Shown: positions 3,828-47,141, counted from the stretch's first letter. The stretch: 64,000 nucleotides of DNA from Candidatus Parcubacteria bacterium (GCA_019661785.1 JAIFWP010000002.1:161869-225868), one strand, 5' to 3'. The notes: generated from the sequence alone by a model not told the origin. Program-made: numbers and translations.

Positions 3828-4127
3828 CTACCAGACCTTATATATCTCGCGGCCACCGGAGACGTACATGTCGTTCATGTCCTTCCACTTGTCCTGCTCC
3901 TCTTTGCTCACCTCAGAGTAATCCTTCTCCATCTCCTTACGCATAGCCTCTTCGAACTCGGCGAGGTTATTGTAGTTATGAATCATGATGACGCGGTGCC
4001 ATTGGCCTGTCATGTCGGTGAGTATGTAAGGACCCTTTACTGGGTCGAAGGGCATGGTCTTCATGAGCTTGGCTATCTTCGAGGCATTGCCGGGCTTACA
4101 GACGAATGTGTTGTGTACTTGGATCAT
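3828..4127 (-). CDS. Hypothetical protein (99 aa), possibly a small alpha/beta-barrel protein
   Basis: Clean ORF overlapping the next gene by 4 nt, which suggests an operon. No confident family. Confidence 0.5.
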   Translation of the reverse strand: MIQVHNTFVCKPGNASKIAKLMKTMPFDPVKGPYILTDMTGQWHRVIMIHNYNNLAEFEEAMRKEMEKDYSEVSKEEQDKWKDMNDMYVSGGREIYKVW

Positions 4128-4384
4128 CCCGTTAGAGTTAGGAAGCGCTTAATTCTATTGTTAATAAATCGTTTACCCATGCCAGATTTTAAATATTTTT
4201 CTCTGGCCCTAGCGTCATCTTCATTATGACACGCTTCGCAGTATATAACGTAAAAAGGACCACGACCTTTCGTATATGTTGACTTACCATTGTTGTGCTG
4301 CCATAAGCGCTTCCGTAAACTATTCGTGATGCCTGTGTACCACTTACCGTCTTTCTTGCTCTTTAGTACGTAGTTGTACCACAT
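4124..4384 (-). CDS. GIY-YIG nuclease family protein (UPF0213-like)
   Basis: YNYVLKSKKDGKWYTGITNSLRKRLWQHNNGK...KYLKSG matches the GIY-YIG core. Confidence 0.8.
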   Translation of the reverse strand: MWYNYVLKSKKDGKWYTGITNSLRKRLWQHNNGKSTYTKGRGPFYVIYCEACHNEDDARAREKYLKSGMGKRFINNRIKRFLTLTG

Positions 4385-11640: not shown

Positions 11641-11681
11641 AATAAAAATGCCCCGTTCCGACTTAGGTCGGAACGGGGCAT
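11641..11681 (-). terminator. Intrinsic terminator: 15-bp perfect hairpin ATGCCCCGTTCCGAC/GTCGGAACGGGGCAT with a U-tract on the minus strand
   Basis: Immediately follows the TAA of the minus-strand gene 11696..11926. Confidence 0.7.
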
Positions 11682-33915: not shown

Positions 33916-34131
33916 GTGCCTGGAGACTCGTTCATACACGCAGATATATTCTTCTTCGTGGCGACCATCGCTGTCGCAGTCTTCGTCGCGGTGTCTATCG
34001 TCGTGGCAGTTTATCTAGTGCGTGCGCTTAGGGCCATAGAAGAGAGGACCGAGGATATGAAGGAGAGCTTCCTATACAACTTATTATTCAAGACTCGCAA
34101 TAAATATAAAGTCGATGCCAAAGATAAATAA
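33916..34131 (+). CDS. Small single-TM hypothetical protein
   Basis: ORF plus hydrophobic helix. Confidence 0.3.
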   Translation: MPGDSFIHADIFFFVATIAVAVFVAVSIVVAVYLVRALRAIEERTEDMKESFLYNLLFKTRNKYKVDAKDK

Positions 34132-34200
34132 AGAGAAGGCTCTTATCATCGGCATGGCCGTGGCAGAGATAATCGCCTTGGCCACCGAGCTAAAAAGAGA

Positions 34201-34836
34201 ATGGAATACAGCAAGCACATCGAGCTCCAGAAGAAGCTCGCCAAGGAAGTCCGCATCGAGCCGCTCAAGGGCGAGGTAAGGCTCGTGGCCGGAGTTGACG
34301 TCTCGATGGAGCGCTTTGGCAATACTCTCTATGCGGGCATTATAGTGCTGTCTTACCCAGAGCTTCGGGTAGTTGAGGAGGTAGTGGCCAAGTCGGAGAC
34401 CGACTTCCCTTATATACCTGGGCTCTTGTCCTTCCGCGAGATACCAGCGCTCTTAGAATGCGTGAAGAAACTTTCATATAAGCCCGACGTCTACATAGTG
34501 GATGGACAGGGCATAGCTCACCCGAGGCGGCTTGGCATCGCCACGCATCTCGGCCTCATACTGGGCACGCCCACCATCGGTTGTGCCAAGAGCGTGCTTT
34601 ACGGCAGACGCTCGGGCGACAATCTTGTAGACCCCAAGACTGGAGAAGTGATAGGTCGAGTCCTCTCGACAAAGAAGGGCTCGAACCCGCTCATCGTCTC
34701 TCCCGGGCATCTCATCACTCTAGAGGAGTCGGTCGAGATAGTCCGCTCTGCTCTCAAGGGATACAAGTTGCCCGAGCCTACCCGCCGAGCGCATCTCCTG
34801 GTGAACGCCTTTCGAAAGGGTATTATCAAAAATTAA
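34201..34836 (+). CDS. nfi: Endonuclease V (deoxyinosine 3' endonuclease)
   Basis: DVS...YIPGLLSFRE...IVDGQGIAHPRRLGIATHLGL...PTIGCAKS matches EndoV motifs. Confidence 0.85.
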   Translation: MEYSKHIELQKKLAKEVRIEPLKGEVRLVAGVDVSMERFGNTLYAGIIVLSYPELRVVEEVVAKSETDFPYIPGLLSFREIPALLECVKKLSYKPDVYIVDGQGIAHPRRLGIATHLGLILGTPTIGCAKSVLYGRRSGDNLVDPKTGEVIGRVLSTKKGSNPLIVSPGHLITLEESVEIVRSALKGYKLPEPTRRAHLLVNAFRKGIIKN

Positions 34837-34851
34837 ACACCATGGCAGTAG

Positions 34852-35054
34852 AAATACAAAACAATCCTAGCGGCGGAGACAACGGCGGCAGCGCAATGAC
34901 AGCGCTCGTAGCTATCCTCGTCATCGTAGTCATCGGACTCGCTATCTGGTTTGGCTTCCGGCACACCGGCTCATCCGGCGGCACCAATGTGAACGTCTCA
35001 CTACCGACGACATCCGGCGGCACAGGCGGAGTCACAGGAGGCGCAGGATACTAA
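34852..35054 (+). CDS. Small Gly-rich single-TM protein (67 aa)
   Basis: ATG within the track ORF 34581..35054; followed by a strong hairpin. Confidence 0.35.
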
Positions 35055-35076
35055 ATTCTGTTTGGCTCAGTTTTGC

Positions 35077-35116
35077 AAAACGGCTCTAAATTAGCTAAGA
35101 TTAGAGCCGTTTTCGC
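35077..35116 (+). terminator. Hairpin AAAACGGCTCTAA/TTAGAGCCGTTTT (13-bp stem) after the small gene
   Basis: Perfect inverted repeat followed by TCG. Confidence 0.5.
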
Positions 35117-35119
35117 ATT

Positions 35120-35277
35120 GCCAAGATAGCTCAGCCCCGACGAGCGAAGCTGTCGGGGAGCCGACCTTGCGTCGGCTTTGGTAGAGTTAGATAGTATTGC
35201 CAAGATAGCTCAGCCCCGACGAGCGAAGCTGTCGGGGAGCCGACCTTGCGTCGGCTTTGGTAGAGTTAGATAGTATT
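35120..35277 (+). repeat. Two tandem 79-bp direct repeats, each starting with the first 15 nt of tRNA-Thr(GGU) and carrying two GC-rich hairpins
   Basis: Unit: GCCAAGATAGCTCAG + CCCCGACGAGCGAAGCTGTCGGGGAGCCGACCTTGCGTCGGCT + TTGGTAGAG + TTAGATAGTATT. Copies at about 35120 and 35199; the intact tRNA begins at 35278. Confidence 0.8.
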
Positions 35278-35350
35278 GCCAAGATAGCTCAGTTGGTAGA
35301 GCACATCCATGGTAAGGATGAGGTCCCCGGTTCGATCCCGGGTCTTGGCT
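35278..35350 (+). tRNA. tRNA-Thr(GGU); CCA encoded at 35351-35353
   Basis: Acceptor GCCAAGA/TCTTGGC, anticodon loop ATGGTAA, T-arm CCCGG-TTCGATC-CCGGG. Confidence 0.85.
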
Positions 35351-35372
35351 CCAGGTCTGCTATACTCAGGTT

Positions 35373-35759
35373 ATGTCACGAGAAGGCGCTCCAACCCAAG
35401 AGCAAGTAAGAGAGGCTTACATCATAGATGAACTTAGAAATACCACTCCAGAAAAGTTAATGAATATGATGCAGGCCACTTCGGCCGAAGAGATGCGGAA
35501 AAATGCTCAAGATCCTGAACAAATCAAAGAATATCTAGCTTGGGATGATGAATGGAGGAGCTTGGTTCAGGCTCTAGAGGGTGAAGAAGGCGAAAGGCAG
35601 ATTTTAAATACAGAACTTAAAAGAGCTGACCTATATATCGCGGCCGACCTAACTGCTTTAGCCAGAGAGACGCTTGAGAGCGCTAGGGACATTGCATGGG
35701 CGATGGGATTCGAGAATGTTTCTGAGGACATTGAAGGTAGACTTGAGACACTCGAGTAG
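35373..35759 (+). CDS. Hypothetical protein (128 aa), acidic and helical
   Basis: ORF; lower GC. Confidence 0.45.
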   Translation: MSREGAPTQEQVREAYIIDELRNTTPEKLMNMMQATSAEEMRKNAQDPEQIKEYLAWDDEWRSLVQALEGEEGERQILNTELKRADLYIAADLTALARETLESARDIAWAMGFENVSEDIEGRLETLE

Positions 35760-35800
35760 TGTTTGCATATAGCAAGATAATGCATATCATTATCTGGCAA

Positions 35801-35873
35801 GCCACCCTAGCTCAGTTGGTAGAGCACCGCTTTCGTAAAGCGGGGGTCCGCAGTTCGATTCTGCGGGGTGGCT
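35801..35873 (+). tRNA. tRNA-Thr(CGU)
   Basis: Acceptor GCCACCC/GGGTGGC, anticodon loop TTCGTAA, T-arm CGCAG-TTCGATT-CTGCG. The prfB ATG starts 2 nt after the tRNA. Confidence 0.85.
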
Positions 35874-35874
35874 C

Positions 35875-36723
35875 ATGGCGGAGAAGGAAGCTATACAAGC
35901 AAAGATAGATGCTATAGAGGCCGAGATGGCCTCGGCAGACTTTTGGAGTGACAAGAACGCCGCTCAAGCGAAGATTAAAGAACTTCAAGATTTGAAAAAT
36001 GATTTGGAGGGCGTCGGCAAGTATGACAAGGGAGATGCCATTATGAATATCTTTACTGGTGCAGGAGGGGACGACGCCGCAGATTGGTCGAAGATGCTCT
36101 TAGCCATGTATGAGAAGTACGCTGCTAAAAAAGGCTGGGCGATAAAGACTCTTGGTGAGAATCAGCTCGAAATCAGCGGCAAGAATGTCTACGGCACCCT
36201 AAAGAACGAGTCAGGCGTACACCGTCTTGTGCGCATATCACCCTTCGGAGCTAAGGGCATACGACAGACCTCCTTTAGCATGGTCGAGGTGGTGCCCAAG
36301 TTCGACAGGCCTGATGAGCTCGCTATACCGCCAGACGATATCCGCGTTGAGCTCTCCCGCTCTAGCGGCCCGGGCGGGCAAAATGTGAACAAGCGCGAGA
36401 CAGCCGTACGCGTGGTGCACATACCAACCAACCTCGCTGTGCATGTGGAGACCGAGCGCTCTCAAGCGCAGAACAAGGAGAAGGCTCTTGCCATGCTCAG
36501 CGCCAAACTTTACAAACTTCAGGATGATGAAAGGAAGGCCAAGGAGAGCGGCATGTATGTATCAAAGACGACGCAGAACGAGTGGGGGAGCCAAATACGC
36601 TCGTACGTGCTACATCCATATAAGATGGTTAAGGATCATCGCACCGATGTCGAGAGCTCTCAGCCGGACAAGGTGTTGAACGGCGACTTGGACGAATTCA
36701 TAGAGGCTGAAAGGGCTCTCTAA
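35875..36723 (+). CDS. prfB: Peptide chain release factor 2 (short form, 282 aa; no frameshift site)
   Basis: SPF tripeptide (RISPFGAKG) and GGQ motif (SGPGGQNVNK). Domain 1 is about 80 aa shorter than in E. coli RF2. Confidence 0.85.
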   Translation: MAEKEAIQAKIDAIEAEMASADFWSDKNAAQAKIKELQDLKNDLEGVGKYDKGDAIMNIFTGAGGDDAADWSKMLLAMYEKYAAKKGWAIKTLGENQLEISGKNVYGTLKNESGVHRLVRISPFGAKGIRQTSFSMVEVVPKFDRPDELAIPPDDIRVELSRSSGPGGQNVNKRETAVRVVHIPTNLAVHVETERSQAQNKEKALAMLSAKLYKLQDDERKAKESGMYVSKTTQNEWGSQIRSYVLHPYKMVKDHRTDVESSQPDKVLNGDLDEFIEAERAL

Positions 36724-46665: not shown

Positions 46666-47001
46666 TCACAAATTATTGTTAATGAGATTCAGTTTCTTTT
46701 CACGTCGCCAGCCCTTCAATTCCAACTCTCTTTGCTTCGCTTCTTTCAGAGTTTGGAATATCTCTTTGTATCTTAACTCAACTGGTCTGCGGATCTTCGT
46801 ATAATATGCTCCCCACTTGGAGTCATTGTGTTGATGTAACCTCCTTTCAAGATTATTTGTACACCCTACATATAAGGACTTATCTGCGCATTCGAGAATA
46901 TAGACGAAGAATGACACATTCAAATAATACCACTTCGCTCTACTGAGCTCAGTGCCTTCGTCGACCTTGTGAAATACGGTCGAAGACCCTGAGGAGCACA
47001 A
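46666..47001 (-). CDS. GIY-YIG nuclease family protein
   Basis: FFVYILECADKSLYVGCTNNLERRLHQHN...; the start is uncertain. Confidence 0.7.
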   Translation of the reverse strand: MCSSGSSTVFHKVDEGTELSRAKWYYLNVSFFVYILECADKSLYVGCTNNLERRLHQHNDSKWGAYYTKIRRPVELRYKEIFQTLKEAKQRELELKGWRREKKLNLINNNL

Positions 47002-47012
47002 GCGACGAAGGG

Positions 47013-47083
47013 CTGCCGATCAGGGACTCGAACCCCAATTAACCGCTCCAGAGGCGGTCGTCCTACCATTAGACGAATCGGCA
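47013..47083 (-). tRNA. tRNA-Gln(CUG)
   Basis: Reverse-strand U1-A72 acceptor TGCCGAT/ATCGGCA, anticodon arm ACCGC-CTCTGGA-GCGGT, T-loop TTCGAGT. Confidence 0.7.
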
Positions 47084-47141
47084 ATACAGGCCAAGAATAG
47101 CTCAAAAGCGAGCTATTTTCAATCTTGATATACTTACTGCT

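Follow-up and report, generated by a model that had tools for sequence, protein, structure and literature searches.

Repetitive extragenic palindromic (REP) sequences and REPINs occur in tens to hundreds of copies per genome and are mostly extragenic. Rickettsia palindromic elements (RPEs), reportedly described by Ogata and colleagues in 2000 as selfish palindromes that sit in frame within protein genes, include RPE-1, which is 100–150 bp long and found in Rickettsia only. Mitochondrial double-hairpin elements have been seen near mobile endonuclease open reading frames (ORFs). In Escherichia coli, tRNA-linked repeats (the tyrT 178-bp repeats and the TLRs) are tandem and each contains a piece of the adjacent tRNA; these repeats carry the tRNA 3′ end, lie downstream of the tRNA and probably arose from unequal crossing-over. 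More broadly, integration into tRNA genes is a classic pattern, and the islands concerned have partial duplications of the tRNA at their flanks. GTAG- and CGTC-tagged REP dimers have been described (Di Nocera et al., 2013; PMC3733652), in a paper that also discusses the RPEs; the double-hairpin elements of Allomyces mitochondria and the repetitive hairpin-forming elements of sponges have been summarized (PMC2800124); and phage T4 SegB is a free-standing GIY-YIG homing endonuclease in a tRNA gene region (PMC2330249). Here we analyze a 64,000-nt stretch from Candidatus Parcubacteria bacterium (GCA_019661785.1 JAIFWP010000002.1:161869-225868), which we call the window, where two tandem 79-bp units, each a tRNA-Thr(GGU) 5′ fragment split by a double hairpin, precede the intact tRNA gene. 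We are highly confident that the double hairpin belongs to a dispersed family of elements that are selfish at the DNA level, and we think it probable that the two units are what is left of a cassette in which such hairpins accompany a small GIY-YIG nuclease gene.

In the window, Tandem Repeats Finder reports a period-79 repeat at 35117–35292 with 2.2 copies, 100% matches and a score of 352. The two perfect units, 35120–35198 and 35199–35277, lie on the + strand directly 5′ of the intact tRNA-Thr(GGU) at 35278–35353, which is detected by ARAGORN and at full length by Rfam (RF00005, 67 bits, E 8e-14) and is presumably functional. Unit 1 begins with a dead copy of tRNA nt 1–15, GCCAAGATAGCTCAG (35120–35134, identical to 35278–35292), continues with a 43-nt double hairpin (35135–35177) made of hairpin 1, CCCCGACGAGCGAAGCTGTCGGGG (24 nt, 35135–35158), and hairpin 2, AGCCGACCTTGCGTCGGCT (19 nt, 35159–35177), resumes with tRNA nt 16–24, TTGGTAGAG (35178–35186), and ends with a 12-nt spacer, TTAGATAGTATT (35187–35198), at the place where related loci hold a GIY-YIG ORF. 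Unit 2 has the same order, with tRNA nt 1–15 at 35199–35213, the second double hairpin at 35214–35256, and tRNA nt 16–24 plus spacer at 35257–35277. The alignment of a unit to the intact tRNA is continuous across the insertion point at nt 15, without a target-site duplication. A first-pass annotation of this stretch had proposed two perfect 79-bp units ahead of the tRNA, each built of nt 1–15, an insert and nt 16–24, which the repeat and tRNA searches and direct reading of the sequence bear out; its lengths for the insert (41 nt) and the spacer (14 nt) are corrected here to 43 and 12 nt.

The same annotation described two 7-bp hairpins, and the insert does fold in this way, at –27.5 kcal/mol (z = –4.55). 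Hairpin 1 reads CCCCGAC-G-AGCGAAGCT-GTCGGGG, with the center dividing as AGC GAA GCT, and has an additional 3-bp inner stem and a bulged G; hairpin 2 reads AGCCGAC-CTTGC-GTCGGCT. The whole unit folds with a D-stem-like helix around the two stable hairpins (z –3.2 to –4.5). The exact 43-mer occurs twice in the window as compared to 0.00 times expected from shuffles, no further copies of the element are present in the 64 kb, and no duplicated pieces of any other tRNA were found when all tRNAs in the window were checked. In an Rfam 15 scan of 34000–36500 at E ≤ 10, only two tRNAs score and the units match no family. A promoter and terminator consensus scan found nothing within the units; upstream of unit 1, TTGCAA-17-TAAGAT matches the consensus at only 8/12 positions and was not called.

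The first-pass annotation had suggested looking for the insert beyond this locus and for covariation in its stems. A strict pattern, applied to one genome per species, found the double hairpin twice, on a single contig titled as a Saccharibacteria metagenome-assembled genome (loci L001 and L002), and a looser pattern, CGAC-N6-20-GTCGGGGAGCCGAC-N3-9-GTCGG, applied to metagenome contigs, found it in at least 120 stretches, mostly from groundwater, aquifer and sediment samples. The pattern scan of viral contigs gave 0 matches, and there is therefore no sign of a phage origin. The L001 copy lies 5′ of its own tRNA-Thr(GGU), in the order own nt 1–15 (GCCGAGATAGCTCAG), element, TTGGT, spacer and intact gene; 41 of its 43 nt are identical to the window element, and the two differences are a compensatory change from A-T to C-G in the inner stem. 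At L002 (434–665), an intact tRNA-Thr(CGU) is directly followed by a partial second copy, truncated at its 5′ end, whose D-loop (nt 15/16) and T-loop (nt 53/54) each bear a double hairpin, the one in the T-loop being a variant in which another hairpin is nested. After chance matches and duplicates were subtracted from the listed matches, we obtained 111 distinct canonical copies of 39–56 nt (mode 40), which are the basis for all counts given out of 111.

Across these copies, the element is an inverted pair of one module, NNCCGAC-G-(closing pair plus 3-nt loop, or a longer inner stem-loop)-GTCGGNN. The G bulged after CCGAC is present in 107/111 copies of hairpin 1, and the final base of the hairpin-2 loop is C in 111/111; the reverse complements of the hairpin-2 loops (GCTTCG, GTTTCA, GCTTTG, GATTCT) give the repertoire of hairpin-1 loops. 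The outer 2 bp are Watson-Crick in 292 of 349 modules and covary (CC/GG 130, AG/CT 123, TC/GA 18, CT/AG 10, and others), and for the 3-bp inner stem of hairpin 1, 36/49 are paired and 14 different triplets occur, so that pairing has been maintained. The CCGAC/GTCGG core is fixed across phyla in sequence and not in pairing alone, which suggests that the hairpins have a sequence-specific protein partner. The element can evidently insert into or beside itself, as nested or adjacent copies are seen at four loci (L105, L048, L009 and L086): at L105, CCCCGACG[CTCCGACCTTGCGTCGGAG]GTCGGGG has a module within the hairpin-1 loop, and at L086 two double hairpins are separated by only TAGCTCAA. We found no description of the element in the open literature, including searches with the literal core sequence, and papers on CPR (Candidate Phyla Radiation) tRNA introns and rRNA insertions do not mention it.

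To describe where the element inserts, we compared the flanks of all copies. The consensus is tCAG | element | TTG, with T at position +1 in 102/111 copies. A tRNA gene lies within 400 nt of 56/111, and in 49/111 the flanks, joined without the element, align to the neighboring intact tRNA. The junction falls after tRNA nt 15 in 38 of these 49 (30 on the same strand as the tRNA and 8 on the opposite strand); 3 others have it after nt 10 and 2 after nt 53. Because the alignments of fragment to tRNA run through the junction with neither duplication nor gap, insertion leaves no target-site duplication. When we removed the element in silico, a complete tRNA was restored in only 1/111 copies, which means that the element lives in fragments and not in working tRNA genes; the first-pass suggestion of disrupted tRNA remnants is upheld in this form, as dead 5′ fragments. 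The layout of the window locus recurs at about 25 loci 5′ of Thr, Val, Ile, Phe, Ala, Arg, Gly and Lys tRNAs, with nt 1–15 of the local tRNA, the element, nt 16 to about 20–47, a spacer of 6–74 nt and the intact tRNA; copies are also present in 3′ fragments and in intergenic DNA. A MITE-like (miniature inverted-repeat transposable element) insertion, also raised in the first pass, is supported in that a sequence-conserved hairpin is dispersed over more than 100 different sites, although the target-site duplication of a classical MITE is absent and no IS-like parent was found in the 2-kb flanks. A tRNA intron or split tRNA was rejected, given the single restored tRNA and the lack of a match to any Rfam intron family. 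For the origin of the locally matched 5′ duplication, a target-site-duplication model, Campbell-type integration of a circle and template switching each fit some loci, and none fits all.

Some copies lie within protein genes. Among copies inside long ORFs, the length is divisible by 3 in 14 of 17, as compared to 29% of copies overall (p = 7e-6), and both orientations are represented; this constraint in coding sequences argues against removal at the RNA level. Essential proteins that carry the element include IleRS, GyrB, IF-2 and L7/L12. In the IleRS copy (L106), the 15 residues encoded by the element fall opposite a gap in the solved IleRS structures and directly precede the conserved FPAD(F/Y)IAEG.DQTRGWF motif, and the GyrB copy lies in a variable linker. 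The element thus appears to be a selfish DNA sequence that is translated where this is tolerated.

In many tRNA-linked copies, a conserved ORF of about 87 aa (consensus M.YVYIL..., YYIGST.D..RR..QH, LKKLKRKDYIEKI..DG.IKI) separates the 5′ fragment with its hairpins from the intact tRNA. The ORF encodes a catalytic domain of the GIY-YIG type (Pfam PF01541, E 7e-11 to 5e-17). Among solved structures, the stand-alone UPF0213 proteins BH0048 and EF2693 are closest to it, and Slx1 follows weakly. Using a family hidden Markov model (HMM), we found that 21/111 copies have a complete ORF no more than 450 nt away and that two others (L017 and L120) have partial remnants of its C-terminal end. When we clustered the ORFs within 2 kb of 110 copies, GIY-YIG was the sole recurrent family (18 loci, compared with 6 for EF-Ts, which ranked second), and no transposase family, whether IS200/RAYT, Y1 or other, was found. 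To remove the bias of the hairpin pattern, we fetched loci through the GIY-YIG protein alone; the search gave 90 homologues, those with names being from Paceibacterota, Nomurabacteria, Wolfebacteria and Uhrbacteria. The hairpin cassette is present at 9 of 9 distinct loci seeded in this way (L123, L124, L128, L132, L134, L135, L137, L140 and L146), in the order tRNA nt 1–10 or 1–15, double hairpin, CTCAG... or TTGGTA..., 3–32 nt, ORF and tRNA. A tRNA is immediately 3′ of 24 of 25 distinct ORFs, with 10 anticodon types represented. At several protein-seeded loci the stop codon of the ORF is the TAG of tRNA nt 8–10, so that the ORF presumably rides on the tRNA transcription unit. A neighbor-joining tree of these short proteins, which is weak, intermixes the tRNA-Phe and tRNA-Thr(UGU) lineages and hints at target switching.

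Locus L140 shows how ORF-less units can arise. Here, two tandem units lie 5′ of tRNA-Thr(UGU): the first consists of GCCGCCTTAG, the hairpins, CTCAG and the full ORF, and the second of GCCGCCTTAG, identical hairpins, CTCAG and only the first ~28 nt of the ORF. Such units therefore duplicate in tandem and lose the ORF by deletion; the duplication presumably proceeds through unequal recombination, with the repeated 5′ segments of the tRNA as its substrate. In the window, the two identical units of 79 bp without an ORF fit the end of a series of the L140 type. Of the serial duplication of an integration scar proposed in the first pass, the tandem duplication stands, with L140 alike, and the scar of an integrase does not, since no integrase lies in the neighborhood and it is the 5′ part of the tRNA that is duplicated.

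Related arrangements were seen at other loci. At several protein-seeded loci, hairpins also accompany fragments of the tRNA 3′ part that lie beyond the intact gene, on its 3′ side. At L132 (~1550–1720), an 83-bp unit present twice comprises a spacer, a single TCCCGAC hairpin and the T-arm and acceptor 3′ end of tRNA-Asn; at L135, a 3′ fragment has an insertion in the T-loop; and at L128 and L131 (~1880–1990), three tandem 23-nt YGCCGAC-GTAAA-GTCGGCA hairpins are followed by a tRNA-Phe 3′ fragment. At L092 (2150–2850) and L013 (10450–11050), the tRNA fragments that flank the ORF and the intact tRNA match each other and differ from this tRNA in the acceptor and anticodon stems; an incoming unit of ORF and tRNA seems to have replaced an older resident tRNA with the same anticodon. 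At L140, a large serine recombinase gene (Resolvase, Recombinase and Zn-ribbon domains; 1070–1661) converges on the tRNA-Thr that bears the array, and an integrated element may lie at the 3′ end of this tRNA. At L035 (~950–1200, viewed on the – strand), a tRNA-Thr-like gene directly upstream of a GIY-YIG ORF is split by about 200 nt in the anticodon loop. An Rfam scan of L035 and L140 at the gathering threshold returned only tRNAs, and the L035 interruption is thus not a recognized intron.

Taken together, these data lead us to favor, with some reserve, the view that the window units are what remains, after loss of the ORF and tandem duplication, of a selfish tRNA cassette with hairpins and a GIY-YIG gene. 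The double hairpin is very probably a small selfish element, widespread in Patescibacteria (CPR), that spreads as DNA and inserts, without duplicating its target, beside AG|TT(G). The tRNA D-loop offers this site at nt 15/16; nt 10/11 and the T-loop at nt 53/54 are used in fewer cases. Insertions would survive only where they are harmless, in redundant tRNA fragments and in parts of proteins that tolerate in-frame additions. A full cassette holds the ~87-aa GIY-YIG gene between the hairpin-split 5′ fragment and the intact tRNA; the window copy would be a derivative that lacks the ORF and was amplified to two units by unequal recombination, and the downstream tRNA-Thr(GGU) would do the work while the units remain non-functional 5′ pieces. 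The units would thereby descend from an ORF-bearing cassette and may be co-transcribed as a leader of the tRNA; in full cassettes, the ORF may be expressed from the tRNA promoter, and the hairpin interruption of the left repeat could stabilize the cassette against deletion between direct repeats. That the nuclease, which consists of the catalytic domain alone and is related to structure-specific nucleases, is the mobilizing enzyme, acting on the hairpins or on D-arm DNA, is a tentative proposal that we hold at less than even confidence. Speculative too, and in our judgment rather unlikely though worth stating, is a partnership of the REPIN-RAYT kind between hairpin and nuclease, as an undescribed GIY-YIG-based DNA mobility system. 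Under such a partnership, a structure- or sequence-specific nuclease expressed within tRNA units would recognize the CCGAC/GTCGG pair or D-arm DNA and drive both the dispersal of hairpins and the remodeling or replacement of tRNA genes across CPR phyla.

Several observations weigh against the descent of the units from a nuclease-bearing mobile cassette. The link between nuclease and hairpin is purely correlative, and both could independently favor tRNA 5′ regions. The collecting pattern fixes the central 14 nt, which biases element diversity and context frequencies. The 5′ fragment always matches the local tRNA, which simple homing from another species of tRNA does not account for. At L021, a clean 35-nt tandem duplication has the element in its first copy and no filler, so ORF-less units may arise without ever having had an ORF. 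The GIY-YIG and tRNA-Phe pair sits in conserved synteny (glutaredoxin ... HSP20-PrsW) in many lineages, which looks more like long vertical inheritance than active mobility. Copy number is low for a REPIN-like system, at 1–3 per fetched contig and 2 in the window. Finally, the family HMM found no cassette GIY-YIG member or ORF remnant in the units or elsewhere in the 64 kb, where only two GIY-YIG ORFs are present, both distant (32–36% identity to the cassette family).

In another explanation, a stand-alone hairpin of the REP or MITE kind, mobilized by some other enzyme, landed in a harmless tandem duplication of the tRNA 5′ end that already existed, the GIY-YIG genes are unrelated neighbors that also favor tRNA 5′ regions, and the units never contained an ORF. 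It accounts for the 88/111 copies with no GIY-YIG ORF within 450 nt, for the many copies in protein genes or intergenic DNA, for L021, which has no trace of an ORF, and for the window units themselves. Random colonization by such a hairpin would leave some sites empty; however, all nine protein-seeded loci are occupied, with the hairpins in the 5′ fragment and the ORF starting 3–32 nt beyond them. Among the ORFs around the element no transposase family is enriched, and the ORF is seen decaying within units at L140, L017 and L120. We consider the stand-alone hairpin unlikely. There is also a small chance that the tandem copy number is an artifact of short-read assembly, with a single unit, or three or more, at the true locus: the source of the window is a metagenome-assembled genome, and short reads make it difficult to count 79-bp units that are 100% identical. 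The existence of at least one unit is nevertheless certain, as the architecture recurs in dozens of independent assemblies, and tandem arrays of units are present elsewhere (L140, L132 with 83 bp twice, and L128).

A functional RNA would explain other features of the units. They could form a structured 5′ leader of the tRNA-Thr precursor, serving as a processing signal, a decoy for the 3′ strand of the acceptor or an attenuator, or they could be a small-RNA array, as the first-pass annotation had also considered; the unit does fold stably around its D-stem-like helix, the stems covary, and the position directly 5′ of the tRNA would allow co-transcription. Yet the element is found in both orientations relative to tRNAs, in coding sequences where it is in frame and translated, and in 3′ fragments and intergenic DNA; the units have no Rfam match and no promoter or terminator consensus; and the conservation of stem sequence across phyla, not of pairing alone, points to a partner at the protein or DNA level. 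The small-RNA or attenuator array therefore finds no support, and we regard any functional RNA as very unlikely. Least probable of all, to the point of being hardly credible, are attL/attR-type scars of an integrase-dependent island or phage that entered a tRNA gene and was later excised. Partial duplications at tRNA genes are typical of such events, and L140 does have its serine recombinase gene just past the tRNA, but in the window it is the 5′ and not the 3′ part of the tRNA that is duplicated, no integrase, transposase or island lies within 3 kb of the units, the insert is a conserved 43-nt hairpin pair that also occurs at unrelated sites, and the element is in none of the viral contigs scanned.

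The neighbors of the units in the window are nfi, a small membrane protein, an orphan ORF, tRNA-Thr(CGU), prfB and ftsEX. Just 5′ of unit 1, at 35073–35119, a 10-bp hairpin (ACGGCTCTAA ... TTAGAGCCGT) followed by TTTT is probably the terminator of the small membrane-protein ORF at 34843–35054; it overlaps the weak promoter-like TTGCAA-17-TAAGAT, and the consensus scan called neither. The orphan ORF (128 aa, 35373–35759) lies between the two tRNA-Thr genes and its sole match in a homologue search is itself; exact-protein look-ups returned no record for this ORF or for nfi. The prfB start at 35875 coincides with the base directly after the end of tRNA-Thr(CGU) (35801–35875). Farther away, at 11651–11680, a perfect palindrome with a 13-bp stem (GCCCCGTTCCGAC TTAG GTCGGAACGGGGC) has the same CCGAC/GTCGG core; it looks like an intrinsic terminator and may be a solo module or a coincidence. 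The first of the two distant GIY-YIG ORFs, a stand-alone ORF of ~83 aa (Pfam E 3e-19) with only ~36% identity to the family in the cassettes, lies in the region 46666–47084 on the – strand, directly downstream of tRNA-Gln(CUG) (47084–47010). Between this tRNA and the ORF are a long inverted repeat, CCTTCGTCG ... CGACGAAGG (~47011–46955), and a D-arm-like piece, GAGCTCAGTAGAGC (46950–46937); the region may be a different or decayed tRNA-linked GIY-YIG cassette. The second, at 4124–4384 on the – strand (86 aa, Pfam E 6e-15), has no adjacent tRNA or hairpin element.

CPR genomes are tiny and streamlined, and it is in such genomes that a conserved selfish hairpin pair of about 40 nt is tolerated in tRNA loci and in essential proteins. 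The window locus is the local member of a family that spans phyla and not a one-off oddity. The order of split fragment, hairpins, GIY-YIG gene and tRNA suggests a new way for a nuclease gene to parasitize tRNA transcription units, and at L092 and L013 the cassette possibly replaced resident tRNA genes. In practice, the annotation of tRNAs and the assembly of short reads are both confused by the pseudo-fragments of tRNA and the short tandem repeats that the units create, and the hairpin offers an easy sequence marker for gene flow among CPR lineages. Should the nuclease indeed recognize the hairpin, it would merit characterization as a very small DNA-structure nuclease that looks programmable.

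When we compare the element with known systems, it resembles the REP/REPIN-RAYT systems of E. coli and Pseudomonas, with which it shares short GC-rich hairpins in inverted pairs, conserved stems with variable loops, some intragenic translated copies, and the company of a single small nuclease or transposase gene that seems to be vertically inherited. REPINs are imperfect palindromes of 20–40 nt that form hairpins, often in inverted pairs, and the element likewise has two hairpins of one module type in inverted orientation. In contrast to them, the associated gene encodes a GIY-YIG nuclease and not an HUH/Y1 (IS200-like) transposase, and the flanks of 110 copies hold no RAYT; the terminal GTAG/CGTC tag is missing, as the ends are CCCC... 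and ...GGCT and CGTC occurs only internally, at the boundary of loop and 3′ arm; tRNA D-loops are strongly preferred; and the hosts are CPR bacteria. Palindrome-associated transposable elements (PATEs) of the IS200/IS605 type have hairpin ends, leave no target-site duplication, insert 3′ of a fixed tetra- or pentanucleotide and depend on a Y1 transposase (TnpA) in trans; our copies leave no target-site duplication and have biased flanks (tCAG|...|TTG), but no Y1 transposase was seen within 2 kb of them. With the Rickettsia RPEs, the element shares palindromic DNA that is kept in frame as extra residues within essential proteins and is also found in RNA genes; its sequence is unrelated to RPE-1, which has neither the tRNA-fragment nor the nuclease context.

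The mitochondrial hairpin elements are similar in that two adjacent GC-rich hairpins are dispersed and apparently mobile; those elements lie in rRNA and protein genes and are retained in transcripts (PMC2800124). They differ in being organellar and unrelated in sequence, and neither targeting of tRNA D-loops nor 5′ duplication has been reported for them. SegB offers the nearest parallel for the nuclease, as a selfish GIY-YIG gene among or beside tRNA genes that spreads with flanking tRNA sequence. SegB is larger, modular, site-specific and of phage origin, whereas the cassette protein is a UPF0213/Slx1-type catalytic domain of ~87 aa in cellular genomes, and its ORF is always preceded by a hairpin-split tRNA fragment; unlike a GIY-YIG homing cassette, which has an intact ORF within the inserted DNA, the window units are a remnant at best. 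The tRNA-linked E. coli repeats are likewise tandem repeats beside a tRNA gene that contain a piece of it, but they contain the 3′ end, lie downstream, and have no inserted hairpin element or nuclease gene. A tRNA intron interrupts a complete tRNA and is removed from the RNA, and an integrase att scar duplicates the tRNA 3′ end near an integrase or island; the window units do neither. We regard the cassette as a variation on a known theme, in which a small palindromic selfish DNA is joined to a homing-type nuclease.

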